From Methanomicrobia archaeon (GTDB lineage Archaea > Halobacteriota > Bog-38 > Methanoflorentales > Methanoflorentaceae), in contig JACWML010000001.1 of the NCBI GenBank assembly GCA_015661395.1, positions 19,273 through 83,272 of the forward strand: a stretch of DNA of 64,000 nucleotides, in the 5' to 3' direction. The notes beneath the pieces were generated by a model. That model was not told where the DNA came from, made no database searches, and saw only the letters and a program-made list of their open reading frames with translations. The translations under genes were made by a program, and so were the position numbers. This document shows, piece after piece, positions 4,820 to 20,589 of the stretch. Numbering within the stretch: position 1 is the first letter of the stretch; every line of letters starts with the position of its first letter.

Positions 4820-6493
4820 ATGAACCTGAGCGGTGCCAAGGCACTTTTGAAAAGTCTCGAATACGAACACGTGGATACGATTTTCGGCATCCCTGGAGGC
4901 GTCGTCATACCCATCTACGACGAACTCTTTAACCAAGATGCCATTACGCACTACCTCGTGCGCCACGAACAAGCAGCCGCGCACGCAGCGGATGGCTACG
5001 CGCGAGCAACCGGGAAAGTAGGCGTGTGCATGGCCACCTCAGGTCCCGGAGCAACGAACCTCGTCACAGGGATCGCGACCGCCTACATGGATAGCGTGCC
5101 CCTCGTCGCGCTTACGGGTCAGGTGACCACGGATCTCATCGGCAACGACGCCTTTCAAGAGGCCAACATAACGGGCATCACACTCCCGATCACGAAGCAC
5201 AGTTACTTGATTCACGAAGCGAGCGAGATTCCACAGACGATAAAGGAGGCGTTTCACATCGCATCCACCGGTCGACCAGGTCCCGTCTTGATCGATATCC
5301 CAAAGGACGTGCAGACGACGAGTGCCCGGTTTGAATATCCGAAAAAGGTGCACTTGCCCGGATATCAGCCGACCTACGAAGGACACCCAGGTCAGATTAA
5401 GCGCGCGGCGAAGGCCATTAATGAGGCGCACCGACCCGTAATCTACGTCGGAGGCGGCGCCAAGATCAGCGGAGCTTCCGAAGAAGTCCGTGCACTCGCC
5501 GAAACTATTGTGGCGCCGGTGACGATGACGCTTATGGGCATGGGAACGTTGCCCGCTGAACATCCACTTTCGCTAGGGATGCTCGGCATGCACGGGACAA
5601 AGTACGCGAACTACGCCGTTACCGAATCAGATCTCATCATCGCGATCGGAGCGCGCTTCGACGACCGCGTAACGGGTAAAATCGCGAGCTTCGCCCCCAA
5701 CGCGAAGATCATTCACATCGACATCGATCCGGCCGAGATCGGCAAGAACGTCAGAGTCGACATACCGATCGTCGGCGATGTGAAGCGAGTGCTCCAAAAA
5801 CTGATCCCACTTCTCAAGGACACGCGCACAAAAGAGTGGATGGAAAAGGTGCAGACGTGGAAGCGCGAGTACCCGCTTGAATTCGGCGAGACAGGCTTAA
5901 AGCCACAGTACATCGTGCGAGAGATAAGCAGACTGTGCCCAGACGCCGTCGTGTGCACCGAAGTCGGGCAACATCAGATGTGGGCTGCGCAATACTTTAG
6001 CCACCGCCACCCGCGAAACTTCATCTCTTCGGGAGGCTTGGGGACGATGGGGTACGGGTTCCCCGCGTCCATCGGAGCGAAGATCGGTCGGCCCGAAGAG
6101 ACCGTTTTTGACCTTGCCGGAGACGGGAGCTTCACCATGAACTGCCAAGAGCTTGCCACAGCAGTCGCTTACGACGTTCAGGTCAAGGTCGCGATCTTCA
6201 ATAACGGCTACCTGGGCATGGTGAGGCAATGGCAAGAGCTCTTCTACGACCGTCGGTACTCCCAGACGAAGCTCTCCGAGATCAACTTCGTGAAGCTCGC
6301 CGGCGCGTTCGGCGCTCACGGAATACGCGTGGACTCGCCGAGCGAAGTAGCGCCCGCCATCGAAGAGGCGCTTGTGGTGCCAAAGCCCGTTATCATCGAC
6401 TTCAGAATCGAACCCGAGGAGTGCGTGTTCCCCATGGTTCCAGCAGGAGCGGCGCTTAACGAAATAATCGACGCAAAGAACGGGAGGGTGTAG
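4820..6493 (+). CDS. ilvB: Acetolactate synthase large subunit (ThDP-dependent)
   Basis: 557 aa. Contains IFGIPGG, a ThDP motif region [15 protein letters not shown]...GDGSFTMN, and sits in ilvBNC context. Confidence 0.95.
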
Positions 6494-7183: not shown

Positions 7184-8170
7184 ATGGTTCAAATCTTTTA
7201 TAACGAAGACGCTGACTTGAAACATCTAAGCGGCAAGACAATCGCAATCATCGGTTATGGCAGCCAAGGGCACGCCCAAGCACAGAACCTCAAGGACTCG
7301 GGACTAGATGTTCTCATCGGTCTGCGCAAGGGGAGATCGTGGGATCAGGCGCTAAAAGACGATTTTGAAGTGCTCAGCGTCGCAGAGGCGGCAAATCGCG
7401 GGGACGTCGTGCAAGTGCTTCTGCCCGACGAACGCCAGGCGGCTGTGTATAAGGCTGAAATTGAACCGCAGCTCCAAGAGGGGAACGTGCTATCGTTTTC
7501 GCACGGCTTCAACATTCATTATAACCAGATCGTTCCCCCGGCACACGTGGACGTAGTTATGGTTGCGCCCAAAGGTCCGGGCCACCTCGTACGGCGCATC
7601 TATACCCAAGGGGAGGGCGTCCCAGCACTGGTGGCCGTGTACCAAGATTACACGGGTAACGCGTTCCAGACGGCGCTCGCGTATGCTAAGGGCATCGGCG
7701 CCACGCGAGCGGGCGTGCTAGAGACGTCGTTTAAGGAGGAAACAGAGACCGATCTGTTCGGGGAACAAGCTGTTCTCTGTGGCGGAACCACCGCGCTCAT
7801 CAAAGCCGGCTTTGAAACGCTGGTCGAAGCAGGCTACAAGCCTGAAATCGCGTATTTCGAGTGCCTGCACGAATTGAAGCTCATCGTCGACCTTATCCAC
7901 GAAGGCGGGCTCTCGTGGATGCGCCATTCAATCAGTGACACGGCAGAATACGGCGATCTCACCAGAGGGGAGTGCATTATTACCAATGCGACACGCGACA
8001 CCATGAGGGGGCTGCTCAAGGACATTCAAACAGGGGAGTTCGCACGCGAATGGATACTCGAGAATCAAGCTAACCGCCCGGTGTTTAACGCACTCACGCA
8101 ACGAGAGAGGGAGCATCCAATAGAAACGGTGGGCGCAAAGCTCCGCGCGATGATGACGTGGCTCAAGTGA
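7184..8170 (+). CDS. ilvC: Ketol-acid reductoisomerase
   Basis: 328 aa with [25 protein letters not shown] lies upstream of the ATG, and TTTTTATAC at 7131-7139 is a candidate TATA box. Confidence 0.95.
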
Positions 8171-8402
8171 CGGCGTGCTTGACTGGCCCCGGTTTTTAGT
8201 GCAGATGCGTGACTGTGGCCCACAATGATCAACGAACGCTGAGCGGAGTTTCACGAATCCCGTCGCCGCTTAGCTTCCCCATTTGACCGTCTGCAGCTGA
8301 CGGCTCTTTGTTGCTTGGCCTCGCAAATAGCTGGCAATGCGTGCGCAAACTCTTATACTCTCGCAAAGAATTAGAAGGCGAGAAGGCTATGGTGGCCGCC
8401 AT

Positions 8403-8966
8403 ATGACCCAAGCCAAGCGCATCTGTGGTATCGGAGCGATTGTGTTTCTGATTTTGCAGCCCACGGCACTAGCAACTCACGCTCTGACAAGCGTTACTTC
8501 GTTTGCGCCGGTGAACGCGACGCGCGACCAAGGCTTTTCCCAGACGTGGCTTTCTGAACAGGGCACTGGCGCGGCACGCAGCCCGGCGATGGTATACGCG
8601 CTTGCGGTAGACGTTCCAGTTGCTCAGAGCGAGATACCTAATGTTTTAGTCCCCTCGACGATTCCGTCTGCTGAGCCATCGCTTCCTACCGTTAGCCCGA
8701 CGCCGCAGCCGGCCACGGCCTCAACGAACAGCACCAACGGCACGGCACCGACCAGCGCCGGGAATGGTATCGACCTCGGCAAGGTTATCGGCAGCATTTC
8801 GCCCTACCTCATCATCGCTCTAATTCCGCTTCTTTTTGTCATCGGAGCCTTGTTTTATTTCTTTTTCATGGGCGATCAAGATCGCGGGGCTCCGAACGAC
8901 GAAAACGAGGCAGACATTCAATTCACCGATGCAGGCGAAGATACCGGGTGGAGAGAGCTCAAGTAA
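8403..8966 (+). CDS. Hypothetical secreted or membrane-anchored protein (signal peptide, Pro/Thr/Ser linker, C-terminal TM helix)
   Basis: N-terminal MTQAKRICGIGAIVFLILQPTALA, a low-complexity PSxP/T-rich linker with NxT sequons, then the TM segment ISPYLIIALIPLLFVIGALFYFFF and an acidic tail. Confidence 0.5.
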   Translation: MTQAKRICGIGAIVFLILQPTALATHALTSVTSFAPVNATRDQGFSQTWLSEQGTGAARSPAMVYALAVDVPVAQSEIPNVLVPSTIPSAEPSLPTVSPTPQPATASTNSTNGTAPTSAGNGIDLGKVIGSISPYLIIALIPLLFVIGALFYFFFMGDQDRGAPNDENEADIQFTDAGEDTGWRELK

Positions 8967-9247
8967 GCTAGGTCTGATAATTTCACGGTTGCCCCAGACA
9001 GGCAGCGCTACAGCGTTAATAACGCTAGCGACACTGTGGCGTCTGCACACCAAAAAGAGGCAATCAACCCCCGAAGGGGGGTCGTATCACCGCCACAAAA
9101 AAACTCGTAGACGGCCAATCAACGGTTATTTCTGCTTCTAAACGGGCAATTGATAAAACGTTATATATTGTGCGGATCATCAGAGGGGTGTGGACTAAGG
9201 CTTGCACGACGCGCACAAAAACAGCGCTGGACGTCGGGGTGAACGCG

Positions 9248-9511
9248 ATGCCGGACAAACAGGATATCATAAAAAAGAGCGTTGATATTCTCGCCCGTAT
9301 CGTTGGGGATGATTCGGTGCCGAGAAATATCCGCCGCGCTGCCGACGAGGCCAAAACGAGGCTGCTCGATCGAGAGGAGTCCGAAGCTGTTCGCGCAGCG
9401 TACGCGATTTCGATACTCGACGACATAAGCAACGATCCGAACATGCCACTCCACACGCGAACGCTCATTTGGAACGTAGCAAGTCAGCTTGAGAAGGTTT
9501 CGATGGAATGA
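9248..9511 (+). CDS. UPF0147 family small protein
   Basis: An 87-aa product from the internal ATG (MPDKQDII...). It carries VPRNIRRAA and [13 protein letters not shown], which I recognise as UPF0147 signatures. Confidence 0.6.
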
Positions 9512-9823
9512 TTGATAGCTTAAGCGCCAAGAGTTAGGGGGTGCGCGTTTGAACTCAACCCTCGTAATGGTCACTTTTTTTGCGTAGATGCGCAATCCGC
9601 GTCTGTGCGATCGTTAGGGCGCCGCACGGATCAACGTTCCTAAGGAAAGGTCGTCGCACAAGGTCGTCGCAAATAATAAAACGACCTGTAAGCATTTTTT
9701 CTGATTTAGAGCGCAATATGAGATGCGAAAAAGTTCGGTGCGCTCATCAAAGAGGAATAATAATATAACATAACGTACGAGTAGTTTTGCGCTTCGGGAG
9801 CGTGAGTAAGGTACGGTGACCTC

Positions 9824-10114
9824 ATGGACGTTGACGAACAGGCCAATAAGATTAAGAGTTGGGCCAGAAAGCATGCCGAGAGACGAGGAATTCAGCTCAA
9901 TCCTGACGAAGAGCGAGTCGATGAGGTCGCAAAGGGTCTCGCTGCCAGGCAGGAAAAGTTCGGAAAGCGTTACTGCCCGTGTCGCATTATTACGGGAGAC
10001 GCCGATGAGGATCGAAAGATAATCTGTCCGTGCGTTTACCACGAAGAAGAGCTCAAAGAGCACGGCATGTGTCATTGCAAGCTTTTTGTTACAAAAGAAC
10101 GTGCGTTGGGATGA
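9824..10114 (+). CDS. Ferredoxin:thioredoxin reductase catalytic-subunit-like protein (FTR/FDR family)
   Basis: 96 aa with the CPC-x16-CPC-x8-CHC cysteine pattern (RYCPCRII...IICPCVYH...GMCHCKLF). Its stop overlaps the next ATG (ATGA). Confidence 0.8.
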   Translation: MDVDEQANKIKSWARKHAERRGIQLNPDEERVDEVAKGLAARQEKFGKRYCPCRIITGDADEDRKIICPCVYHEEELKEHGMCHCKLFVTKERALG

Positions 10115-10526
10115 GCGGTTGCGCGAGCATCTCATCAGGCGGCTACGAGTTTAAAAGCGGAATAACGCCCCCTACAGTGGTTGGCAACTTGATGCAGAAC
10201 AAAACGGTCATCCTGTTCATCACGCAGAACAACTGCCCTGATTGCGAGCAGGCACGACCACTGATAGCGAGTCTTCAATCGCAGTACAATGGCACGAACG
10301 TAACATTTGTTAACTTCAACATCGACAACAACACTACGTCACAGAATGTCGCCAAAGCCTATGGCGTGACCGCAACCCCGACAACCGTTGTGTTACGCAA
10401 GGACGGGTCCGCCGCGATCTTCGTGGGTGTCTTCGACCCGAGCACGGTGAAAAGCGCCATTGACGACGCACGCAGCACTTACTAAGGACGCGCGCACATG
10501 GAAGTAAACCCACTGATCGCTTTCGG
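9914..10526 (+). repeat. Segmental duplication, copy A (3' part of FTR-like gene, thioredoxin, first ~30 nt of ccdA)
   Basis: Collinear with 11299..11927 by manual alignment. A 155-nt block, 9946-10100, differs from the other copy by a single base. Confidence 0.85.
10111..10485 (+). CDS. Thioredoxin-fold protein, CPDC active site
   Basis: 124 aa. Has VILFITQNNCPDCEQARP and a cis-Pro-type TPTTVVLRKDG. Translationally coupled to the FTR-like gene. Confidence 0.8.
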   Translation: MSGCASISSGGYEFKSGITPPTVVGNLMQNKTVILFITQNNCPDCEQARPLIASLQSQYNGTNVTFVNFNIDNNTTSQNVAKAYGVTATPTTVVLRKDGSAAIFVGVFDPSTVKSAIDDARSTY

Positions 10527-11160
10527 AGCAGGCCTGATTAGCATTTTTTCTCCCTGCGTGTTACCCTTGCTACCGGCCATCGTCGCCTCATCAACGGATC
10601 GCGGCAGATACCGGCCTCTCGCCATCGTCCTGGGCCTAAGCATATCCTTTACGAGCATGGGACTCGTCGCATCGGCTTTTGGCGCCGTTTTTACGGCGTA
10701 TAGTTATTATCTCTTCGCAGCGGCGATATTCTTCATTATCGCAATGGGATTCTGGATGCTCTTCGATCTCCACCTACCCTACAGTGCGCCGCGGCTAGGT
10801 CTCATCGATCGGGTCTCAAAGAAAACGTATGACATTCCGACCGAAGGCATTGCGAGCGGGCTGCTGTTGGGACTTGCACTCGGCATTGTGTGGCTTCCGT
10901 GCACGGGACCGGTGCTCGGCACGATACTCACGTGGGTCGCCGCGAAGGGCGACGTCATGACGGGCGGCCTGCTGCTCATCGTTTACTCGCTCGGCTTCGC
11001 CGTTCCCATGCTGGCGATCGCGTATTCGACAAAGATGTCGTCATCACTTGTCGGCAAATCGTCCAAGACTATCTGGATTAAGCGCGTCGCGGGCTTAATG
11101 CTCATCGTGGTAGGCGTTTATCTGGTTTGGCCGTACCTCGCAACGCTTACTCAGTTTTAA
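10498..11160 (+). CDS. ccdA: CcdA/DsbD-family transmembrane thiol:disulfide electron transporter
   Basis: 220 aa, about 6 TM segments, with SPCVLPLLP and LPCTGPVLG motifs. Confidence 0.85.
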   Translation: MEVNPLIAFGAGLISIFSPCVLPLLPAIVASSTDRGRYRPLAIVLGLSISFTSMGLVASAFGAVFTAYSYYLFAAAIFFIIAMGFWMLFDLHLPYSAPRLGLIDRVSKKTYDIPTEGIASGLLLGLALGIVWLPCTGPVLGTILTWVAAKGDVMTGGLLLIVYSLGFAVPMLAIAYSTKMSSSLVGKSSKTIWIKRVAGLMLIVVGVYLVWPYLATLTQF

Positions 11161-11191
11161 AACGTCTTTTTGTGAACGAGGCCACAGCAGT

Positions 11192-11310
11192 ATGCATTGG
11201 ATTGTGCAAAAGAAAGAGATAGCGCCTTCCACGTTCGCGTTAAGATAGATGCACCGCTAGTCGCCAAAAAAGCAAGAGCGGGTCAATTTGTGGTCGTACG
11301 AGTCGATGAG
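11192..11310 (+). pseudogene. 5' remnant of a PyrK-like NfnA/SudB-type subunit gene
   Basis: ATG 11192 gives MHWIVQKKEIAPSTF. After a 1-nt frame change the sequence reads RVKIDAPLVAKKARAGQFVVVRVDE, the typical N-terminus of the FAD/NAD-binding small subunit. Homology stops there. Confidence 0.6.
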
Positions 11311-11505
11311 GTAGCCAAAGGTCTTGCCCTCAGGCAGGAAAAGTTCGGAAAGCGTTACTGCCAGTGTCGCATTATTACGGGAGACGCCGATGAGGATCGA
11401 AAGATAATCTGTCCGTGCGTTTACCACGAAGAAGAGCTCAAAGAGCACGGCATGTGTCATTGCAAGCTTTTTGTTACAAAAGAACTATGCTTGCTGAGCG
11501 TCGCG
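11311..11505 (+). pseudogene. Partial duplicate of the FTR-like gene (C-terminal ~60 codons), fused in frame to flanking sequence
   Basis: Encodes VAKGLALRQEKFGKRYCQCRIITGDADEDRKIICPCVYHEEELKEHGMCHCKLFVTKE. It lacks its own N-terminus, and the first CPC has become CQC. Confidence 0.7.
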
Positions 11506-11886
11506 ATGAGCGGGTGCCTCAACATCAATCAGTCGGGTTACGAGTTTAAAAGCGGGATAACACCACCAGCAGTGGTTAGCAACTTGATGCAGAACAGAAC
11601 GGTCGTCCTGTTCATCACGCACAACAACTGTCCTGATTGCGAGCAGGCACGACCGCTGATAGCGAATCTTCAATCGCAGTACAGTGGCATGAACGTGACG
11701 TTTGTGAACGTTAACATCAGCGCCAACAGGACGTCCCAGGACGTCGCCAAAGCGTATGGCGTGACGGCGACCACGACCCCGACAACCATTGTTTTACGCA
11801 AGGACGGATCTGCGGCGACCTTCGTGGGTGTCTTCGACCCGAACATCGTGAAAAGCGCCATTGACGACGCGCGCAGCTCGTACTAA
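11506..11886 (+). CDS. Thioredoxin-fold protein, CPDC active site (diverged paralog)
   Basis: An internal ATG gives a 126-aa product. About four fifths of residues match the 10111..10485 product by manual alignment, with a 2-residue insertion. The active site is intact. Confidence 0.65.
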   Translation: MSGCLNINQSGYEFKSGITPPAVVSNLMQNRTVVLFITHNNCPDCEQARPLIANLQSQYSGMNVTFVNVNISANRTSQDVAKAYGVTATTTPTTIVLRKDGSAATFVGVFDPNIVKSAIDDARSSY

Positions 11887-11927
11887 GGACGTGCGCACAT
11901 GGAAGTAAACCCACTGATCGCTTTCGG

Positions 11928-12254
11928 CGCGGGGCCTATCCCAAGATCTTCTGCGGCAGAGACAGAACGCCGCACTTCTCGATTGATACGGCCTGCGCCG
12001 TGCTGCGCCCGAAATTCGATGGCTGGTCTTTGATTCCAGAAGGCTGCCGCGTGATAATCGATGCCTTCGCGCCGGAAGGCGATGTCCTCGCGCCTAGCGT
12101 GACCGCAGCCGATTCGTTAATCCGCGACGCAGACGAGGTTCTCGTTTCCGGTCCCGGGGCGATGACTACGAGAAGAGCTGCAATGCCCGGGGGCGAGATG
12201 ATGCGATCTGCGCACGGAGTGGCCGTCCTGGTGCGTAAGGTAAAAAGACTATAG
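11928..12254 (+). pseudogene. Orphan PUA-domain fragment (C-terminal piece of an ArcS/TgtA-like gene)
   Basis: The frame is open from 11910. It encodes ...RVIIDAFAPEGDVLAPSVTAADSLIRDADEVLVSGPGAMTTRRAAMPGGEMMRSAHGVAVLVRKV, matching the PUA consensus pattern. No catalytic domain lies upstream. Confidence 0.5.
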
Positions 12255-12341
12255 GTTCAACTAGTAGGATACATTGCAGAATATCCATGGAGTGAAAAGG
12301 TTGTTCCGTATCGAAAACGCCGGACAGAAAGGGGGAGAATT

Positions 12342-13514
12342 ATGAACACCCAAACCGTTGCACAGAAAACAAAGGGTATCGTGATCGCCGTTGTAAAGGA
12401 ACAGGCCCCGCATGAGCAGCGCGTTGCGACCGTGCCCGAGGTGGTCCAGAAACTCACGAAGTCGGGGTACGAGGTCCGGGTCGAGCATGATGCGGGAGCG
12501 GGAGCTTTCTACCCAGACGACCTCTATGTTGCCGCCGGTGCGAAGATCGCGCCCGGTCGGGCCGAACTGCTAGACGGTGCAACAATCGTGTTGTGCGTAC
12601 AGCCCCCAGCCATAGCCGATGTCGAGATGCTCGCAGCGAGCACGATCGTCATAGGGTTCATGAACGCGGCAAACAACCTTTCAACCGTTGCACGGATGCG
12701 TGACCGCAAGGTCACCGCCTTTGCCCTCGAGCTTGTCCCGCGGATCACCCGCGCCCAGAGCATGGACGCACTCAGTTCCCAGGCAACGGCCGGCGGGTAC
12801 GCAGCAGCGATTCTCGGCGCATACAACTGCCCCAAGTTCCTCCCGATGCTGACAACGGCTGCGGGCACGATCCGGCCGGCAACGGTGCTGATCCTTGGCG
12901 CGGGCGTTGCCGGCCTCACGGCGATCGCCACAGCCAAGCGCCTTGGCGCCATGGTCGAGGCATACGATGTCCGGCGTGCCGCAGGCGAACAGGTCCGGAG
13001 CCTCGGCGCGAAATTCCTCGAGCTTGAGATCAATGCGGAAAGCGAGGGAGGCTATGCCCGAGAGCTCACGCCGGAAGAGAAGGTGAAGGAACAGCAGATG
13101 GTCTCTGCCGCGGTGGCGCGGGCTGACATCGTTATCACGACTGCCAGCATCCCCGGCCGGAGGGCGCCGATCCTGATAACGAAAGAGACCCTCGCAACGA
13201 TGCATCCGGGCGCCGTCATCGTCGACCTTGCTGCTGAATCAGGCGGCAACTGCGAGCTGACACAATGTGGAAAGACGGTAAAGGAGCACGATGTCACTAT
13301 CGTGGGCCCGCAGAACCTCCCGGCCCGGGTCGCGTTTCACGCAAGCCAGATGTACGCAAGGAACCTCCAGTCGTTCCTCTCGCTCCTTGTTAATGAGGAC
13401 GGGGCGTTCACCCGTGAGTTCACTGACGAGATTCTGGCAGCAAGCCTCCTGGTGAACGCAGGCGAAGTGCGGCATCAACCAACGCTTGACCTCATCAGCG
13501 GAGGGAGGCTGTGA
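12342..13514 (+). CDS. pntAA: NAD(P) transhydrogenase subunit alpha part 1
   Basis: 390 aa, alanine-dehydrogenase/PNT fold with VLILGAGVAGLTAIATAKRLGA. GGGGGAG lies 5 nt upstream of the ATG. Confidence 0.9.
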   Translation: MNTQTVAQKTKGIVIAVVKEQAPHEQRVATVPEVVQKLTKSGYEVRVEHDAGAGAFYPDDLYVAAGAKIAPGRAELLDGATIVLCVQPPAIADVEMLAASTIVIGFMNAANNLSTVARMRDRKVTAFALELVPRITRAQSMDALSSQATAGGYAAAILGAYNCPKFLPMLTTAAGTIRPATVLILGAGVAGLTAIATAKRLGAMVEAYDVRRAAGEQVRSLGAKFLELEINAESEGGYARELTPEEKVKEQQMVSAAVARADIVITTASIPGRRAPILITKETLATMHPGAVIVDLAAESGGNCELTQCGKTVKEHDVTIVGPQNLPARVAFHASQMYARNLQSFLSLLVNEDGAFTREFTDEILAASLLVNAGEVRHQPTLDLISGGRL

Positions 13515-13822
13515 CCGAGATCACTGCGTTCTGGATCGCTATCTACATCGCAATGCTGGCGGCATTCACCGGCTACGTTGTCATTAGCCGTATCCCCGCC
13601 ATCCTACACACACCTCTGATGAGCGGCTCGAACTTTATCCACGGGATCGTGCTCGTTGGGGCGATGGTAGCGCTCGGCCTTGCCAATACGCCTACAGAGC
13701 AGGTGATCGGGTTCATGGCAGTTGTTCTCGGGGCAGCGAACGTGACTGGCGGTTATGTAGTCACGGAACGGATCCTCCAGATGTTCGACCGTAGCGGAAA
13801 GAAGCCCGGCAAGGGGGCGTGA
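13511..13822 (+). CDS. pntAB: NAD(P) transhydrogenase subunit alpha part 2 (membrane)
   Basis: 103 aa, three or more TM helices, 4-nt overlap with pntAA. Confidence 0.85.
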   Translation: MTEITAFWIAIYIAMLAAFTGYVVISRIPAILHTPLMSGSNFIHGIVLVGAMVALGLANTPTEQVIGFMAVVLGAANVTGGYVVTERILQMFDRSGKKPGKGA

Positions 13823-13823
13823 C

Positions 13824-15206
13824 GTGGCTGACTTCTCCTTTGCCATCGAACCCGTATACATTGCGACGATCTTCTTCTTCATCGTCGGGCTGCAGCGGAT
13901 GAGCAACCCGCTCACGGCTCGGAGCGGGATCGTTTGGGCCGGCGCCGCGATGCTGATCGCAACGCTCGTCACGTTCTTTACCCCAAATCTCACCAACATC
14001 GGCCTGATCGCGATCGCGATCGTGATCGGTGGCGGCTTCGGCTATATATCGGCCAAGCGCGTGGCGATGACCAACATGCCCCAGATGGTTGCATTCTTCA
14101 ACGGGATGGGGGGAGGCGCGGCAGCCGGGATCTCGGCAGTCGTGCTCCTTGGCCCGACCACTCCCACCAGCTCGCTTGCGGTCGTTGGCGGCTTGATCGG
14201 GGCTGTCTCGTTTTCAGGCAGCCTCATCGCGTTCCTGAAGCTGCAGGGCTGGATGCCATCGCGGCCGGTTACCTTCACGGGCCAGCAGATCGTCAACATG
14301 GCAGTCCTGGTCCTCGCCATCGTTTCCGGTGTGTTCGTCATCCTTCAGCCGTCATCGAGGCTGCTTTCCGTAAACGCGTCTCTCCCGCTCTTCTTTATTC
14401 TCGCTCTCGGCTTCGGGCTCCTCATGACGCTCCCGATTGGCGGGGCCGACATGCCTGTAGTGATCTCGATGTACAACGCCTTCACCGGCCTGGCCGTTGC
14501 GCTTGACGGGTTCTCGTTTGTCACCCCCAACTATGCGATGATCATAGCGGGCGTCATTGTCGGCGCTGCGGGTTCGCTGCTCACGCTCAAGATGGCTAAG
14601 GCAATGAACCGCTCGCTCACAAACGTCTTCTTCGGAGCCTTCGGCGCAACGGAGGAGCAGGCGGCGCATGTATCGGGCAGCGTGAAAGCGATCGAGGCTG
14701 ACGACGTTGCAGTCATGCTCGCCTACGCGGACCGGGTTATCATCGTCCCCGGCTACGGCATGGCAGTCGCTCAAGCCCAACAGAAAGTGAAGGAGCTGAC
14801 CGACGTGCTCGAGCGTAGGGGCGTGCGGGTGAAGTTCGCGATCCACCCGGTTGCCGGACGTATGCCTGGGCACATGAACGTCCTGCTTGCCGAGGCAGGG
14901 GTTGCCTACGACCACCTCTTCGACCGCGATGAGGTGAACCCTGAGTTCCCCAGCACTGACATCGTCCTTGTCATCGGGGCCAACGATGTCGTAAACCCGG
15001 CGGCACACCGGAAGGGCAGCCCGCTTTTCGGCATGCCAATCCTCGATGTCGAACAGGCAAAGAACGTGATCGTCCTAAAGCGCGGGCAGGGAAGGGGCTT
15101 TGCGGGGATCGAGAACGACCTGTTCTACCGGGACAACACGCGGATGCTCTACGGCGACGCGCAGGAAACGGTCGGCAAGCTTGTGCAGGCCCTCAAGAAA
15201 CTCTGA
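13824..15206 (+). CDS. pntB: NAD(P) transhydrogenase subunit beta
   Basis: 460 aa. Polytopic N-terminal half and a C-terminal NADP(H) domain (IIVPGYGMAVAQAQ...HPVAGRMPGHMNVLLAEA). GTG start 1 nt after the pntAB stop. Confidence 0.9.
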   Translation: MADFSFAIEPVYIATIFFFIVGLQRMSNPLTARSGIVWAGAAMLIATLVTFFTPNLTNIGLIAIAIVIGGGFGYISAKRVAMTNMPQMVAFFNGMGGGAAAGISAVVLLGPTTPTSSLAVVGGLIGAVSFSGSLIAFLKLQGWMPSRPVTFTGQQIVNMAVLVLAIVSGVFVILQPSSRLLSVNASLPLFFILALGFGLLMTLPIGGADMPVVISMYNAFTGLAVALDGFSFVTPNYAMIIAGVIVGAAGSLLTLKMAKAMNRSLTNVFFGAFGATEEQAAHVSGSVKAIEADDVAVMLAYADRVIIVPGYGMAVAQAQQKVKELTDVLERRGVRVKFAIHPVAGRMPGHMNVLLAEAGVAYDHLFDRDEVNPEFPSTDIVLVIGANDVVNPAAHRKGSPLFGMPILDVEQAKNVIVLKRGQGRGFAGIENDLFYRDNTRMLYGDAQETVGKLVQALKKL

Positions 15207-15383
15207 ATCCCACGGGGATCTGCGAGACCGATCATACGGCCCCGTCGAGGTCAACGGGAGCGACTTCTACTCAACGCAGCGTTTATCGATGTGATCGGTC
15301 AAGACCCCCCAACATTCTTCCCCCTCTAACGTGCGGCAATCCATAAGGGAACAGATGTAATACCTTTATTGACGATGATTGTC

Positions 15384-15509
15384 TCACCTTTTTGCAACAC
15401 TCGTTGCCGATGAAGATGTTGCTACAAAGCGGCAACCGTAATTAGCGCGATGGGTGCAGGAAAGCGCACCGCGCGCGCGGTAGAGGCATTCATAAAGCAG
15501 GGTCCGTAA
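15384..15509 (+). pseudogene. 3' remnant of a GltD-like NfnB/SudA-type subunit gene
   Basis: Encodes ...FATLVADEDVAT, then after a frame change AATVISAMGAGKRTARAVEAFIKQGP-stop. This is the characteristic C-terminal end of glutamate-synthase-small-subunit-like oxidoreductases. No gene body lies upstream. Confidence 0.55.
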
Positions 15510-15647
15510 GGGCTATAACAGCCCAAAAAAGGACTGAAAGCAGTGCTTTCGAGATAAAGCGCTTGAACTGACTTACCTTGCAGAAAATATTTAATTAATC
15601 AACGGGATACTACAAGTCATAAGTACATACGGAGTGTTTTTCTAAAA

Positions 15648-17582
15648 GTGTCACAAGCGGAAGAAGTCAGCACCGACACGGAAGCACCAGCAGTTGAGCA
15701 CAAAGCGTCAGCTTTGCTTGGAGGCCTAGACATAGCGGTCACCGACGAGATCGCTGTCCCTCCAATGCTTGTCGACCAGGTGATTGGACAGGAACAGGCC
15801 GTTGAGGTGATCAAAAAGGCGGCCAAGCAGCGCCGGCACGTCATGCTGATCGGCTCTCCAGGCACAGGAAAGTCAATGCTCGCCCGGGCCATGGCAGAAC
15901 TCCTTCCCAAAGAAGAGCTGCAGGACATCCTCGTATATCACAATCCTGAGGATGGCAACAGCCCTAAGGTGCGTGTCGTACCGGCAGGGAAAGGGCGGCA
16001 AATCGTCGACTCACACAAACGGGAGGCACAAAAGAAGATCCAGTTCAGGAATATGCTTTCGATGGTGATTGTTTTCGCAATCGTCGGTTACTCTTTTGCG
16101 ATCAATCAACCGATAATGGGTATCATCGCCGCTGCTATGCTTTTCATCGCGCTGCGCTACATTACGCCCCGTGAGGACGTGTTGATACCAAAGCTCCTCG
16201 TTATGAACGATGGCAAAGAGACCGCCCCCTATATCGACGGGACCGGAGCGCACGCGGGGGCCCTTTTGGGCGACGTGCGACACGACCCGTTTCAATCGGG
16301 AGGACTTGAGACGCCGGCGCACGACCGGGTCGAGGCAGGGGCTATTCACAAGGCGAACAAAGGCGTTCTTTTCATCGACGAAATCAATACGCTCAGAATT
16401 GAATCGCAGCAACAGCTCCTTACGGCGCTACAAGAGGGTGAGTTTCCCATCACCGGCCAATCCGAGCGCTCAAGTGGCGCCATGGTAAAAACAACCCCTG
16501 TGCCGTGCAATTTCGTGATGATCGCTGCCGGAAATCTCGACGCCGTGAAGGGCATGCACCCCGCTCTACGCTCGCGTATCCGCGGCTATGGCTACGAAGT
16601 ATACATGCGCGATTCCATGCAGGACACGCCAGAAAATCGCCGAAAAATCGTCCGGTTTGTGGCTCAAGAGGTGAAAAAGGACGAGAAGATTCCCCACTTC
16701 ACTGCCGATGCGGTCGAAGAGATAATCCGTGAGGCACGCCGACGATCAGGGAGAAAGGGGCACATCACCTTGATGCTGCGAGATCTTGGCGGCTTGATCC
16801 GCGTCGCGGGGGACGTCGCTCGGGCCGAAGCGTCTGAATACACGACCGCTAAACACGTTATCGCAGCCAAGAAGATGGCGCGGTCGGTCGAACAGCAGCT
16901 TACAGATCAATATCTCGAGCGCCGCCGCGACTATCAGATGTTTCGAAATACCGGCGCCGAGGTGGGCCGCGTAAACGGCCTCGCGGTAATGGGTGATGAT
17001 TCAGGCGTCGTCCTGCCCATCGTGGCAGAGATCACCCCTGCGCAGTCAAAGCAGGAGGGCCGCGTAATCGCGACTGGCCTGCTTAAAGAGATCGCTCTTG
17101 AGGCAGTGCAAAACGTCTCGGCGCTCATCAAGAAGTTTTCAGGCGAAGACATCACCGACAAAGACGTGCACATCCAGTTCATCGGTACCTATGAGGGCGT
17201 CGAGGGGGACTCGGCCTCAATTTCAATCGCCACCGCCGTGATCTCCGCGCTTGAAGACGTTCCAGTTGACCAGTCCGTTGCGATGACCGGATCCCTTTCG
17301 GTCCGGGGAGAGGTGCTGCCCGTTGGGGGGGTCACGCCCAAGGTGGAAGCAGCCGCTAAGGCGGGCATCACGCGCATACTCATTCCGAAAGACAACGAAG
17401 GCGACGTCATGCTCGAGAAGCAGTACAAAGACACGGTGCAAATAATCCCCGTTAGCTCTATCCGCGAGGTTCTCGAAAACAGCCTGCTCGGTCGAAAGCG
17501 CGACGGCTTGCTCGAGCACCTCAAGAAATTCACCATAAATTCACACGATCTGACGGGCCGTTCGAGCGCGGTCCCTCAGTAA
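15648..17582 (+). CDS. lonB: Archaeal membrane-bound ATP-dependent Lon protease
   Basis: 644 aa. Has Walker A GSPGTGKSML, two TM helices inserted in the AAA+ domain, and a C-terminal Lon protease domain (GDSASISIATAVISAL). Confidence 0.9.
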   Translation: MSQAEEVSTDTEAPAVEHKASALLGGLDIAVTDEIAVPPMLVDQVIGQEQAVEVIKKAAKQRRHVMLIGSPGTGKSMLARAMAELLPKEELQDILVYHNPEDGNSPKVRVVPAGKGRQIVDSHKREAQKKIQFRNMLSMVIVFAIVGYSFAINQPIMGIIAAAMLFIALRYITPREDVLIPKLLVMNDGKETAPYIDGTGAHAGALLGDVRHDPFQSGGLETPAHDRVEAGAIHKANKGVLFIDEINTLRIESQQQLLTALQEGEFPITGQSERSSGAMVKTTPVPCNFVMIAAGNLDAVKGMHPALRSRIRGYGYEVYMRDSMQDTPENRRKIVRFVAQEVKKDEKIPHFTADAVEEIIREARRRSGRKGHITLMLRDLGGLIRVAGDVARAEASEYTTAKHVIAAKKMARSVEQQLTDQYLERRRDYQMFRNTGAEVGRVNGLAVMGDDSGVVLPIVAEITPAQSKQEGRVIATGLLKEIALEAVQNVSALIKKFSGEDITDKDVHIQFIGTYEGVEGDSASISIATAVISALEDVPVDQSVAMTGSLSVRGEVLPVGGVTPKVEAAAKAGITRILIPKDNEGDVMLEKQYKDTVQIIPVSSIREVLENSLLGRKRDGLLEHLKKFTINSHDLTGRSSAVPQ

Positions 17583-17584
17583 CC

Positions 17585-17591
17585 TTTTTTT
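17585..17591 (+). terminator. Oligo-T tract after lonB
   Basis: TTTTTTT lies 3 nt after the lonB stop. Archaeal termination commonly uses T-runs. Confidence 0.3.
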
Positions 17592-17631
17592 GCGCCCCAT
17601 TTCACAGCGACGGTGACTGAGGCCATATACC

Positions 17632-18606
17632 ATGGACGAAGAGAGCGTGCCACAGTATCGAAGGGCGCGAACGATAGAGACAAACGCCGATCTAAGCGCT
17701 CCCACTGAGGAGCTGTGGCACATTCACGACAATTTTGCCGCAGGAGAGCAAAAGGAAACGGCCGTCACGACCACGTCCCTCCTCGATCTGAAGATCGAAA
17801 TAGCGCAGCGTATGTGTCGTGAGTGCCACTTCTGTGAACGGCGGTGCTACGCCAACAGAGCAGAGAGACCGGGATTTTGCGGCGTCCAGCGATCGAAATA
17901 TTCATCCGAATTCCTTCATTATGGTGAGGAACGCGAGCTCGTGCCATCGCACACGATTTTTCTCACGGGCTGCACGTTTCAGTGCGCCTTCTGCCAAAAC
18001 TGGGATATCGCACGACATCCGAAGGCGGGTGCGATCGCTGATGCAGATGCGCTTGCACGGCGAATCTACGCACGATCAATCGCGGGCGCGCGCAACGTGA
18101 ACTGGGTCGGGGGAGATCCCACCCCGCATATCGGTACTATTCTGAAAACCATGCGAGCCCTCGCCGACCTCGAACAAAAAACGGAGGGCGATGCACGATT
18201 CTTGAACGTGCCGATGGTCTTTAACTCCAACACCTACTACTCCACGGAAGCCGCTAAGCTTCTCGATGGCGTGATCGACGTCTATTTGAGTGATTTCAAA
18301 TACGGCAACGACCGCTGCGCGAAACGGTACTCACACGTTGACAAGTACGTGGAAACCGTTACGCGAAACCTGCTCGCATCGCAACAAAGGCTTATGATAC
18401 GCCATCTCGTAATGCCCGGACACGTTCAGTGCTGCACGGGGCCGATCGTCGCGTGGGTGCGCGAGACCATGCGCGACGTCAAGTTCAACTTGATGTTTCA
18501 GTACTCACCCTATAACGTGACCGATTACCCTGAAATTAATCGGTTCGTGAGCGATGCAGAGCGGCGCGAGGCGACAAATATCGCAAAGGGCTTAAATCTC
18601 ATCTGA
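17632..18606 (+). CDS. Radical SAM protein, PflX-like (pyruvate formate-lyase activase-related)
   Basis: 324 aa. CTFQCAFCQNWDI is a CxxxCxxC motif, and there is an extra N-terminal cysteine cluster CRECHFCERRC. Confidence 0.8.
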   Translation: MDEESVPQYRRARTIETNADLSAPTEELWHIHDNFAAGEQKETAVTTTSLLDLKIEIAQRMCRECHFCERRCYANRAERPGFCGVQRSKYSSEFLHYGEERELVPSHTIFLTGCTFQCAFCQNWDIARHPKAGAIADADALARRIYARSIAGARNVNWVGGDPTPHIGTILKTMRALADLEQKTEGDARFLNVPMVFNSNTYYSTEAAKLLDGVIDVYLSDFKYGNDRCAKRYSHVDKYVETVTRNLLASQQRLMIRHLVMPGHVQCCTGPIVAWVRETMRDVKFNLMFQYSPYNVTDYPEINRFVSDAERREATNIAKGLNLI

Positions 18607-18620
18607 CGTTATCTTTGACT

Positions 18621-19376
18621 ATGGGGATTATAACCCTCATTTCTGACTTTGGGACGTTCTATCCCGCCGTAATGAAGGCCGTCATCCTCGGCATAGCACC
18701 GGACGTCAGTATCGTCGATGTAACTCACGACATTTCGCCCCAGAACGTGCGCGAGGCGGCGTTCATCCTCCGAGAGACAGTCAAGTACTTCCCTCGAGGC
18801 ACAACGCACATCGCCGTCGTTGATCCGACCGTCGGGACGGGCAGGCGGGCCTTAGTCATCGAAGCGGGAGGGCACTACCTCGTTGGCCCCGACAACGGAC
18901 TTCTGATTCCTGCAGCACGCTCCTTAGGCGATTTTGAAGCGATGTGCGTCCACGTGGCGGCCAAGTCAAGAACGTTTCACGGGAGAGACGTCTTCGCCCC
19001 GGTGGGGGCGCATGTCTCTCTGGGGCGGCTGCGAAACCTTGAGCCTGCGCCCGCGCACGTAGACCTTGAACTCCAAGACCCGCAGGTGTCTGAGCACACC
19101 GTTAGCGGCACCGTCGTCTACGTCGACCGGTTTGGGAACTGCGTGACGAATATCAGCGGTATCCTTATGGCACGACGATCGGGCTACGGCAGCACGCACC
19201 TTCTCAACGGTTCCGTCGCGGTACAGTTTGTGAGAACGTACGACGAAGTAGCTCACGGACACCCGTTGTTGACCGTTGGAAGCTTCGATTTGGTGGAGGT
19301 GTCCATCAACCAAGGAGATGCTGCCACAGAGCTTAATCTTAATTCAGGTGACACGGTAACGCTCGATCGATTGTGA
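18621..19376 (+). CDS. SAM hydroxide adenosyltransferase / SAM hydrolase (DUF62 family)
   Basis: MGIITLISDFGTFYPAVMKAVILG and the later FHGRDVFAPV match the family pattern. The start is set at ATG 18621. Confidence 0.8.
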   Translation: MGIITLISDFGTFYPAVMKAVILGIAPDVSIVDVTHDISPQNVREAAFILRETVKYFPRGTTHIAVVDPTVGTGRRALVIEAGGHYLVGPDNGLLIPAARSLGDFEAMCVHVAAKSRTFHGRDVFAPVGAHVSLGRLRNLEPAPAHVDLELQDPQVSEHTVSGTVVYVDRFGNCVTNISGILMARRSGYGSTHLLNGSVAVQFVRTYDEVAHGHPLLTVGSFDLVEVSINQGDAATELNLNSGDTVTLDRL

Positions 19377-19420
19377 CGAACGTCATCCTTGCAAGAAGCA
19401 GGGCGCTCTTTCCACGAACG

Positions 19421-19900
19421 TCAGAGCGGGTCCTCTACGCTTTGCGAGCACACGCCTTCAAGCAGAAGCAGTTTTCGTTTGATGTCAACGCCCCAAGAAA
19501 AGCCCCCAAGGCCGGACGCGGCTACGACGCGATGGCACGGCACAAATAGCGGAACCGGGTTGTGGTGCAGCGCATTGCCTACCGCTCGGGCCGCTTTCGG
19601 CTTCCCTAATAACGCCGCCAATCCCGAGTAAGTCGCCGTACTCCCTCTTGGTATCCCTCGCACCGATTGCAGTACGGCCCGTTCGAATGCCGAGCGGTTT
19701 CCAAGGTCGACCTGAAAGGTGCCAAGGTCAACGTTCTCTCCTTTCAAGTAGCGTTCAAGTGCTTTTGCGGCTGCTGTCGTAGTGCGTGCGTTAAACGAAC
19801 CCGCTGCCCCGAGTGCAACTTGACAAACGACGTCGTTGCTTAGCGCAACAGACACGAATCTACCCAGGTATTCAGAATAGAAGCACCCGGTTTCAGTCAT
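19421..19900 (-). CDS. ogt: Methylated-DNA--protein-cysteine methyltransferase
   Basis: 159 aa with the active-site motif VPCHRVV and TYSGLAALLGKPKAARAVGNAL. Confidence 0.9.
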   Translation of the reverse strand: MTETGCFYSEYLGRFVSVALSNDVVCQVALGAAGSFNARTTTAAAKALERYLKGENVDLGTFQVDLGNRSAFERAVLQSVRGIPRGSTATYSGLAALLGKPKAARAVGNALHHNPVPLFVPCHRVVAASGLGGFSWGVDIKRKLLLLEGVCSQSVEDPL

Positions 19901-19905
19901 GGCTG

Positions 19906-20589
19906 TTAAAGGAGGTACCAGTCGTAGTCATACAAAGCCTTTACAAGCGTCCCTAATTGGACGTCTTCGCGAGGATCGACCACGAGTGAACGTAACGCAT
20001 CCTTCAAGTCAGCCAAATATTGCGCGTTGCTCAAGCTCCCGTACTCAAACCTCCTGCCGCGAACCCGGCAACGTTCGAGCGTCTCCTGCCGAGGTAGAAT
20101 GGTGACAGAAAGGTCGGTCATTTCACAAGCCTGTTGCATGGCTTTCCTAAAATCACCGGTGCAATAGGCAACACGGTGGCGGTAGTTGCTCCGCGTCTTT
20201 TCTAGATATCGGTGGAGCCGCGCACTCTCTAGTTCGATGAACTTCTTCTTGACTGACATGACGTCGCAGTCGCCGAGTACGAAATCGTAGTGAGCAAATG
20301 GGTACTCGGTATCAAGCTCCCTCGGAGTGACGCCGCACGTCCCAAATGCGACGATGTGCACTTCTTCTGGCTCCAAAACGCTGAAAATGACCTTGTCGTA
20401 ATTTTGATGACTTGGACTCGTGTGATAAGGCTTCACCTTCGCACACGGCACAAAAATCAATACCTCACGCACGGGCGCAACGTACTCACGCAGCACGTGC
20501 TCATTTGCCCTCACCATGTCAGGATGGGCAAAGATCTTCTCTCCAACCAGCGACAATTTTGAGCGCTCTGATTCAGGGATTATCATCAT
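19906..20589 (-). CDS. Stand-alone DUF5591 / ArcS core-domain protein
   Basis: 227 aa containing PCAKVKPYHTSPSH. This fits exactly the PC-x3-KPY-x2-S-x2-H motif that I recall as defining archaeosine synthase ArcS. No TGT-like or PUA domain is attached. Confidence 0.65.
   Translation of the reverse strand: MMIIPESERSKLSLVGEKIFAHPDMVRANEHVLREYVAPVREVLIFVPCAKVKPYHTSPSHQNYDKVIFSVLEPEEVHIVAFGTCGVTPRELDTEYPFAHYDFVLGDCDVMSVKKKFIELESARLHRYLEKTRSNYRHRVAYCTGDFRKAMQQACEMTDLSVTILPRQETLERCRVRGRRFEYGSLSNAQYLADLKDALRSLVVDPREDVQLGTLVKALYDYDWYLL

Follow-up and report, generated by a model that had tools for sequence, protein, structure and literature searches.

A 64,000-nucleotide (nt) stretch of a Methanomicrobia archaeon genome (contig JACWML010000001.1, positions 19,273 to 83,272; hereafter the window) carries an intact pntAA-pntAB-pntB operon, encoding a predicted proton-translocating transhydrogenase, PntAB, between two gene stubs, nfnA′ and nfnB′, that match the two outer ends of an operon for an electron-bifurcating transhydrogenase of the NfnAB type. 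On sequence grounds, we put the probability at about 0.85 that a pntAB operon acquired from another methanogen sits here in the remains of an NfnAB-type operon, as an in situ non-orthologous displacement. An initial annotation of this DNA had suggested that pnt displaced nfn in place; the stubs do bracket a foreign insert, but the comparisons indicate that the event is not private to the window genome and is common to all sampled Bog-38 relatives. The window was compared with loci L001-L010 and L086-L100, and the assemblies drawn on include ENA, JGI, Logan and GenBank metagenome-assembled genome (MAG) contigs. The archaeal Lon protease LonB served as synteny anchor and places the window in the Bog-38 lineage. 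Bog-38, also known as Candidatus Methanoflorentaceae or Rice Cluster II, comprises hydrogenotrophic peat methanogens, which rank with the most abundant methanogens of northern peatlands (bioRxiv 10.1101/2025.08.21.671631). The reactions of NfnAB and PntAB are described in PMC4518329.

The left stub, nfnA′ (11192..11310, + strand), is what remains of the gene for a PyrK-like NfnA/SudB small subunit: some 40 codons from its N-terminal end, interrupted by a single frameshift near 11236. It reads MHWIVQKKEIAPSTF at 11192-11236 and then, after a one-base frame change, RVKIDAPLVAKKARAGQFVVVRVDE to 11310. Its own ATG lies 31 nt past ccdA. In profile searches, the 40-residue stub aligns to positions 1-40 of the 281 positions of NF004862 ('sulfide/dihydroorotate dehydrogenase-like FAD/NAD-binding protein', the NfnA/SudB family) with E = 1e-10; the score is 41.6 bits against a curated cut-off of 220, and the similarity extends no further than 11310 in the window and about codon 110 in its relatives. 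A complete NfnA of about 280 amino acids (aa), with its NAD(H)-binding Rossmann domain and C-terminal [2Fe-2S] site, is not encoded here, and nfnA′ is a pseudogene remnant rather than a functional member of the family. When the window stub is combined with the sequence of a related locus (L008), the composite covers positions 1-87 of NF004862 (E = 5.5e-27) and matches three PDB chains at E ≤ 0.001, all of them Nfn-type small subunits: 5jca_S (Pyrococcus furiosus NfnI small subunit, E = 1.4e-16), 4ylf_A (Thermotoga maritima NfnA, E = 2.6e-13) and 5vj7_B. Homologous nfnA stubs of 55-126 codons, which gene callers list as open reading frames (ORFs) of 74-126 aa, are found in the relatives and are better preserved than the one in the window. 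The longer stubs include the motifs ERGEQIPLTIA and IKIIFQEVGLTTKKL. For example, P0001 (126 residues) contains GQFVVVRVDQKGERIPLTIAETYPESGLIKIIFQEVGLTTKKLRCIGEGGEIADLVGPLGTPTDLRKWGTVVLV, and in an exhaustive HMMER search NfnA-like proteins align with it over residues 6 to about 115.

The right stub, nfnB′ (15347..15509, + strand), is the tail end of a gene for a GltD-like NfnB/SudA large subunit. Roughly 50 codons are left, distributed among three frames and closed by the original stop codon. Its peptide ...LFATLVADEDVATK continues in another frame as AATVISAMGAGKRTARAVEAFIKQGP, with the stop at 15507-15509, while a third frame carries the stub back to about 15347 (GNRCNTFIDDDCL); this stop lies 138 nt ahead of lonB. 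The window peptide (40 residues) aligns to positions 718-751 of 752 in the fused NfnA-NfnB model NF009414 (E = 7.8e-6) and to positions 419-449 of 449 in TIGR01316 (E = 1.9e-3), and a frameshift-corrected consensus of several species extends these matches to positions 705-751 (E = 6.9e-10) and 405-449 of 449 (E = 6.3e-8), respectively. The C-terminal segment of the NfnB FAD/NADPH domain (...GGD..TG.ATVI.AMG.GK.AA..I..) is therefore present and reaches the end of the profile; a complete NfnB, which would measure about 460 aa and include FAD- and NADPH-binding domains besides two [4Fe-4S] clusters, is not, as the stub is split over three frames and has no gene body upstream. Stub B is kept in L007, L008, L087 and L088.

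Both stubs lie on the same strand, in small-then-large subunit order, one on each side of the insert, and their matches are far beyond chance. The initial assignment of the two peptides to the NfnA/SudB N-terminus and the NfnB/SudA C-terminus is borne out by these profiles; Pfam returned no match for such short stubs, and the full-length NCBIfam models were needed. Because relatives have the same locus with the same stubs, and with longer and better kept nfnA stubs, the two pieces are genuine pseudogene remnants that are decaying independently.

The operon between the stubs is complete. The gene pntAA (12342..13514, + strand), for the NAD(H)-binding dI part of the transhydrogenase alpha subunit, covers Pfam AlaDh_PNT_N (2-134 of 136) and AlaDh_PNT_C (1-213 of 214) and matches NF006942 with E = 2e-113; pntAB (13511..13822, + strand), for the membrane part of alpha with four transmembrane helices (4-TM), covers PNTB_4TM (2-85 of 85, E = 3.2e-30) and positions 423-509 of NF006942; and pntB (13824..15206, + strand), for the beta subunit with membrane domain dII and NADP(H)-binding domain dIII, covers PNTB (4-455 of 456, E = 2e-170). 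A further match is to NF006974 (E = 1.8e-119). The whole-protein scores against NF006942 and NF006974 stay under the curated equivalog cut-offs, for which the fused two-gene form had served as the basis; the full PntAB domain set is present in intact, adjacent ORFs. The ribosome-binding site (RBS) GGGGGAG reported in the initial annotation lies at 12331-12337, 5 nt before the pntAA ATG.

This RBS forms the 3′ end of an 87-nt spacer between arcS′, a fragment described below, and pntAA (12255..12341, + strand), with the arcS stop codon upstream of it. The spacer aligns with L097 and L098/L099, and it is kept from Bog-38 to Methanoregula (L097 4392-4481) although synonymous sites are saturated; this suggests that the cassette probably brought its own promoter and 5′ untranslated region in the spacer. 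A structured RNA was considered for the same stretch and rejected: the consensus fold reaches only -4 kcal/mol, compensatory pairs and covariation are absent, and Rfam gave no match.

Two sets of calculations characterize the operon's coding sequences. Their GC content at third codon positions (GC3) is 0.72, 0.72 and 0.80, against a mean of 0.651 (standard deviation 0.048, maximum 0.735) for the 34 other ORFs of the window, with lonB at 0.664 and ccdA at 0.665; the enrichment that had been noticed by eye is real but modest. Across 11 pairwise comparisons, dN/dS ranges from 0.06 to 0.40 and mostly from 0.1 to 0.25 (pntAA 0.14-0.25, pntB 0.10-0.16). The pnt ORFs are intact in L001, L008, L086 and L087, and indeed in all relatives examined except L098, where pntAA is called in two pieces. 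Intact ORFs together with low dN/dS indicate that pnt is maintained by purifying selection and that the operon has stayed functional.

The insert also carries a fragment of a donor-type neighborhood. The 'PUA fragment' listed between the stubs in the initial annotation does have a Pfam PUA match (12000-12254, E = 3e-4), but instead of being an unrelated scrap it corresponds to the 3′ end of a donor arcS. This fragment, arcS′ (11928..12254, + strand), encodes the last 108 residues of archaeosine synthase subunit alpha with the PUA domain, and appears to have hitchhiked from the donor locus. Positions 11928-12251 read as the ArcS C-terminus in one open frame, with 56% amino-acid identity to either of the two ArcS proteins of Methanoregula type (E = 8e-33 and 3e-32). 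Against the ArcS model NF040592, the fragment aligns to positions 468-575 of 575 (E = 2.5e-24) and scores 85.8 bits where the cut-off is 440; the full-length combination of DUF5591 and PUA is missing. The window has a resident ArcS-related gene, coding for a DUF5591 protein of 227 aa at 19906-20589 (- strand), which matches the ArcS profile at positions 260-412 only and has no PUA domain; arcS′ is therefore not a copy of it.

In contrast to the window, L097 (Methanoregula sp.) and the closer L100 have the gene order AMMECR1 - TGT - ArcS - pntAA - pntAB - pntB with a full-length ArcS (548 and 543 aa, DUF5591 plus PUA; the L097 gene scores 594 bits against NF040592). Positions 11969-15199 of the window are collinear with L097 over 3.3 kb at 77% nucleotide identity, through the spacer, and this collinearity indicates that donor context was carried in with the operon. 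As arcS is intact beside pnt in the donor-type genomes and only its 3′ end is found here, the direction of transfer points into Bog-38. The closest PntB proteins outside the Bog-38 clade are those of Methanomicrobiales/Methanoregula (84-89% identity, with L100 at 87%), compared with 90-97% within the clade, whereas LonB is only 65-68% identical to Methanoregula LonB. Similarity to all foreign cassettes ends at 15199-15220, at most 14 nt past the pntB stop.

The spacer after pntB (15207..15346, no strand assigned) was searched on both strands for further nfnB, inverted nfnA and other gene remnants and has no family match; past about 15220 it also has no similarity to the foreign pnt cassettes. 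Its larger part, 15221-15346, is 88-90% identical to L007 and L087, is deleted in L008, and could be heavily decayed nfnB or DNA from downstream of the donor operon. An inverted 'GERIPL' match downstream of pntB in L099 (E = 0.056) was judged to be due to chance.

The flanks of the displaced operon are native. On the left, ccdA (10498..11160, + strand; Pfam DsbD_TM, E = 1.1e-21), a gene for a ccdA/DsbD-type thiol-disulfide transporter, is syntenic in all relatives; on the right, lonB (15648..17582, + strand; Pfam Lon_C and LonB_AAA-LID) is the synteny anchor. The LonB proteins most similar to that of the window belong to L006 (98% identity; MAG 'bog_38') and to two GenBank MAGs, L007 (93%) and L008 (92%), and the next matches are from Methanocellales at 76-77%. 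L007 and L008 are other species than the window, with flanking genes at 72-83% nucleotide identity, and among the 80 GTDB LonB loci compared they alone have the region upstream of lonB in common with it; the L006 contig stops 150 nt before lonB, and that of L007 spans only pntB - nfnB′ - lonB. In L008, L086 and L087-L092, the order is ccdA, a longer nfnA stub, pntAA-pntAB-pntB and then, where the contig reaches, nfnB′ and lonB. The synteny comparison that the initial annotation had pointed to thus recovered the same stubs, in longer form, in the relatives; an intact ccdA-nfnAB-lonB arrangement was not found among them.

These observations are consistent with the following course of events. An ancestor of Bog-38 (Candidatus Methanoflorentaceae) would have had a two-gene nfnAB/sudBA-type operon, with a PyrK-like small and a GltD-like large subunit, between ccdA and lonB. 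A DNA fragment from a Methanomicrobiales (Methanoregula-like) locus of the order TGT-arcS-pntAA-pntAB-pntB, starting inside arcS and ending about 14 nt past pntB, would then have integrated into this operon by illegitimate recombination, with loss of the operon's interior, so that only the 5′ part of nfnA and the final ~50 codons of nfnB were left. The remnants nfnA′, arcS′ and nfnB′ would have decayed afterwards through frameshifts, stop codons and lineage-specific deletions, giving rise to two junction types (I and II, below), and in the window lineage a 0.6-kb FTR′-Trx-ccdA′ copy would later have been inserted at the type I junction via microhomology. The replaced allele would finally have spread among Bog-38 species by recombination and been picked up by at least one other archaeal lineage.

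Several points weigh against a displacement in place. No genome was found with intact nfnAB between ccdA and lonB, so that the ancestral state is read from the stubs alone; of the two Methanocellales loci, L009 (LonB 76%) shows no synteny and has unrelated genes upstream of lonB, and L010 (77%) was not inspected. When 5.8 billion proteins were searched by word index for an intact nfnA orthologue, only other stubs (~70% identity) came up, followed by mostly partial bacterial NfnA-like proteins (~50%). In an exhaustive HMMER search, 1.84 billion representatives yielded no match below E = 1e-30 and none above 53% identity; these representatives are clustered at 50% identity, and the negative result does not strictly exclude an nfnA orthologue. 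The nearest intact NfnA-like proteins are thus only about 50% identical to the stub. The short stubs fit the PyrK-like/GltD-like NfnAB/SudAB family, which falls short of proof of Nfn transhydrogenase activity. The original left integration junction is kept in no allele seen, and positions 15221-15346 are unexplained, as they match no family and no donor-type locus. The Methanoregula-type loci have an identity of 0.40-0.54 to the window at 4-fold degenerate sites, which is saturated, and neither L097 nor L100 is the actual donor. The 64-kb window, moreover, leaves room for other nfn copies, or for Fno or other NADPH sources, elsewhere in the genome.

Other explanations of the layout differ greatly in their likelihood. 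An assembly chimera, or stub similarity arising by chance, can practically be dismissed. Such a suspicion could be raised by the window's two odd deletions relative to L001 and by the contigs L002-L006, which start between the pntB 3′ end and lonB: these five independent metagenome or MAG contigs begin between the pntB 3′ end and the lonB upstream region (L002-L005 at positions equivalent to window 15099-15564, L006 at 150 nt before lonB), and their breaks were probably caused by the cassette being shared at 90-95% identity among co-occurring species. The near-identical, independent contig L001 nevertheless carries the whole layout, and four more contigs span pntB - stub B - lonB at 99.9-100%. 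L001, L002, L004 and L005 (99.9-100% identical), together with JGI and GenBank contigs, span the junctions; each junction is covered by at least five independent assemblies at 99.9-100% identity. Diverged species have the same architecture, and the stub E-values of 1e-10 and of 7.8e-6 to 6.9e-10 fall at the correct protein termini. Chimeric junctions had been named at the outset as what would overturn the proposal; independent ENA, JGI, Logan and GenBank MAG assemblies reproduce the junctions instead, and the layout is not an assembly artefact. It is improbable, though far less so, that the composite nfnA′-arcS′-pnt-nfnB′ was assembled elsewhere and entered Bog-38 as one piece between ccdA and lonB, with no resident nfnAB at this place. 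Consistent with such an import, the whole block is less diverged between species than its surroundings (stubs 0.67-0.70 and pnt 4-fold sites 0.77-0.82, against 0.43-0.51 for 4-fold sites of the flanks), no relative has an intact nfnAB at the locus, and the cassette is mobile, with L098 and L099 holding it in other contexts and L099 including a piece of nfnA′. The position of the nfnA′ start codon 31 nt after ccdA and of the nfnB′ stop 138 nt before lonB is, on the other hand, the spacing expected of a resident operon. A patch of lower identity between the window and L087 takes in both ccdA (79%) and stub A (69%), while the sequence around it is about 95% identical; this ties stub A to the native flank. 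The copies outside Bog-38 hold no more than 15 codons of nfnA′, and nfnB′ was not detected in them (for the latter, L098 alone is telling, as L099 ends about 100 nt past pntB), making them subsets and not the source, and a stub divergence between that of the flank and that of the cassette is expected from recombination within the stubs. Together, these features argue for integration into a resident operon over import of a pre-formed block.

A further alternative accepts that an operon was destroyed here and questions its identity: the lost genes could have encoded a PyrK-like/GltD-like pair with another job, such as a sulfide dehydrogenase or polysulfide reductase, an Xfn/NfnII-type or a glutamate-synthase-like enzyme, so that the insertion of a transhydrogenase at this site was a coincidence. 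We consider this unlikely, at roughly one chance in five. The PyrK/GltD-type family is functionally heterogeneous, what survives is no more than 40-110 residues from the N-terminus of the small subunit and about 50 from the C-terminus of the large one, and the best NCBIfam names are generic ('sulfide/dihydroorotate dehydrogenase-like', 'NADPH-dependent glutamate synthase'), with 5vj7_B itself deposited as 'Ferredoxin-NADP(+) reductase subunit alpha'. In structural-sequence terms, the best matches are nevertheless the biochemically characterized small subunits of P. furiosus NfnI and T. maritima NfnA, and the small-then-large gene order is that of nfnAB. A like-for-like exchange is also likelier than the uncompensated loss of an enzyme with an essential function, and pnt is fixed in all sampled relatives, where it is under purifying selection. 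The lost enzyme was thus presumably a true Nfn transhydrogenase, and its displacement in place by PntAB would have shifted NADPH/NADH balancing at this locus from a soluble, ferredoxin-dependent, electron-bifurcating enzyme to a membrane-bound one driven by the proton motive force.

The left side of the insert exists in two forms. In junction type I (the window and L093-L096), about 40 codons of nfnA′ are joined to about 110-116 codons of arcS′; in type II (L008, L086 and L087), 75-110 codons of nfnA′ are joined to about 40 codons of arcS′ at GTTCTCGTTTCCGG. Since each type holds sequence that the other lacks, the two go back to an ancestor with longer remnants, from which each arose by deletions of its own. 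Type II was considered as the original integration junction and rejected, because type I has about 75 arcS′ codons that are absent from type II.

Divergence across the locus is uneven. Between the window and L008 (window 12138-15220 against L008 6658-9742, with flanks at 7184-11160 and 15648-20589), identity at 4-fold sites is 0.77-0.82 for pntAA, pntAB and pntB and 0.43-0.51 for six flanking genes, among them ilvC, ccdA, lonB, radical-SAM and SAM_HAT; the corresponding dS values are 0.21-0.31 and about 1.0-1.1. The neutral remnants lie between the two or near the cassette values (arcS′ 80%, stub B 67-70%), and even the cassette of L099 has 4-fold identities of 0.74-0.75 to the window for pntAA and pntB. 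As pnt is much less diverged than its flanks, the comparison indicates that the cassette spread between species by recombination after their divergence. In sequence terms, the locus is a recombination mosaic, and the replaced allele has passed from species to species after their split.

Within Bog-38, the window is 92-97% identical to L087/L088 except for one patch (window 10498-11310, L087 5880-6694), where ccdA falls to 79% and stub A to 69%. The patch coincides with the switch between types I and II, and in an L093-like lineage the same two elements are 94% and 89% identical to the window, which suggests that the tract was acquired from another lineage by recombination.

The cassette has, moreover, moved beyond the family. 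L099 5269-8401 (JGI 3300012931, 'Methanomicrobiales archaeon', GC 60%, unrelated context) has a type II junction with about 15 codons of nfnA′ (PLGTPIDVRKGGTVVFVSG), whereas L098 6407-9399 (ERZ25039519, GC 62%, likewise in an unrelated context) has a cassette with only the last ~7 arcS codons (RKVKRL*) and pntAA in two pieces. Both cassettes are 87-89% identical in nucleotide sequence to Bog-38 loci (the window, L086 and L087). Because L099 keeps the type II nfnA′|arcS′ junction, its copy derives from a Bog-38 type II allele. A broader scenario, which we regard as possible but rather doubtful, is an adaptive introgression: that an allele of single origin swept through diverged Bog-38 species by homologous recombination, with the nfn stubs serving as homology arms against resident, intact nfnAB, and that type II was then re-exported to GC-richer peat archaea (L099, L098).

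The window's type I junction has been altered further. The initial annotation placed a partial duplicate of ferredoxin-thioredoxin reductase (FTR) and thioredoxin (Trx) genes between the stubs; this segment (11299..11933, + strand) is indeed a direct copy of 9914-10532 with 86-96% identity (repeat families D1-D3), comprising FTR′ from codon 31 to its end, Trx′ and codons 1-12 of ccdA′, but it belongs to a separate event. It is seen only in the window and the near-identical L001, and because L093-L096 have the type I junction without it, the duplicate is a later insertion. The 0.6-kb insertion replaced 24 nt at the pre-existing nfnA′|arcS′ junction, with a left microhomology CGAGTCGATGAGGT, encoding 'RVDE' in both nfnA′ and the FTR gene, and an imperfect right microhomology GCGGGGCCT, common to the ccdA 5′ end and arcS′.

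The source copies of these genes lie upstream of ccdA. The FTR catalytic subunit gene (9824..10114, + strand; Pfam FeThRed_B, E = 8.9e-26) has its 3′ end altered by a 73-nt deletion relative to L001, and copy 1 of the thioredoxin-like lipoprotein gene (10101..10485, + strand; Pfam Thioredoxin) has, in its window version, no RBS, start codon or signal peptide, while the thioredoxin copies in L001 and L008 encode 142-146 aa with signal peptide and lipobox. The duplicated thioredoxin of L001 is complete, with 148 aa, its own RBS, signal peptide and lipobox (L001 3693-4133 for the parent and 5151-5597 for the duplicate; window 10101-10485 and 11486-11886). The Trx paralogues differ with dN/dS 0.31 and dS 0.49, whereas FTR′ is only dS 0.14 from its parent and has a CPC to CQC change in the redox motif; the second thioredoxin of L001 is probably a functional paralogue.

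The window and L001 are otherwise 99.6-99.99% identical; 73 nt are missing from the window after 10100 and 62 nt after 11485 (L001 3676-3748 and 5134-5195). Both deletions remove the RBS, start codon and n/h-region of the signal peptide of the thioredoxin in the respective FTR-Trx copy, and neither is flanked by direct repeats. The second creates a chimeric 229-aa ORF (11197-11886) that fuses the nfnA′ frame, FTR′ and Trx′. A look-up of the changed FTR product, of 96 aa, in public assemblies returned no record; the two deletions may be a real strain variant or an artefact of assembly or consensus building.

Displacement in situ is reportedly a concept of Omelchenko et al. 2003, 'Evolution of mosaic operons by horizontal gene transfer and gene displacement in situ'. 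In such cases, an acquired gene set that is unrelated but analogous takes the exact position of the replaced system while the flanks stay unchanged; the locus described here has the foreign origin, the same location and the conserved flanks of this class. Non-orthologous displacement in situ by transfer is a known phenomenon, and what is unusual here is the completeness of its physical record. Whereas displacement is usually read from phylogeny, the old gene being gone, both ends of the old operon survive here along with a fragment of the donor's neighboring gene, arcS′, and a whole two-gene operon, rather than one gene, has been replaced by a three-gene operon. The contexts of donor and recipient, as well as the orientation, are therefore directly legible.

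Each component can be compared with its known counterpart. Like NfnAB, stub A fits the first 40 residues of the small subunit (to about 110 in relatives) and stub B the last ~47 of the large subunit; unlike NfnAB, the stubs are frameshifted remnants with no cofactor-binding region left (FAD, [2Fe-2S], two [4Fe-4S] and NAD(P)H sites), and the ancestral activity is deduced from the family. The transferred enzyme resembles the three-polypeptide form of PntAB, with a split alpha (dI and a 4-TM piece), a beta of dII and dIII, and genes that overlap or abut, in keeping with translational coupling; it differs from other PntAB in that its host is a hydrogenotrophic methanogen lineage and that the operon appears to have arrived by transfer between archaea. 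The Methanoregula loci L097 and L100 share the collinear arcS 3′ end, spacer and pnt genes (77% at the nucleotide level, PntB 85-87% at the amino-acid level), but they have a full-length arcS with AMMECR1 and TGT upstream where the window has only the last 108 codons of arcS. For Methanoflorens and Methanoregula, literature searches on pnt or nfn yielded no relevant work.

The history of this locus can be read directly from its parts: the displaced operon has left remnants on either side of the insert, the donor a piece of its neighboring gene, and the later course shows in lineage-specific deletions with two junction types, a duplication via microhomology and signs of onward spread. The redox balance among ferredoxin, NADH and NADPH in abundant peat methanogens bears on models of their energy metabolism, and here a co-occurring methanogen order would have supplied a pnt operon that then went on circulating among peat archaea. 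If the sweep of a single-origin allele is correct, it would imply strong recent selection in acidic peat methanogens for an NADPH supply driven by the proton motive force over a ferredoxin-dependent one, as well as a working route of gene flow between methanogen species and orders in peat.

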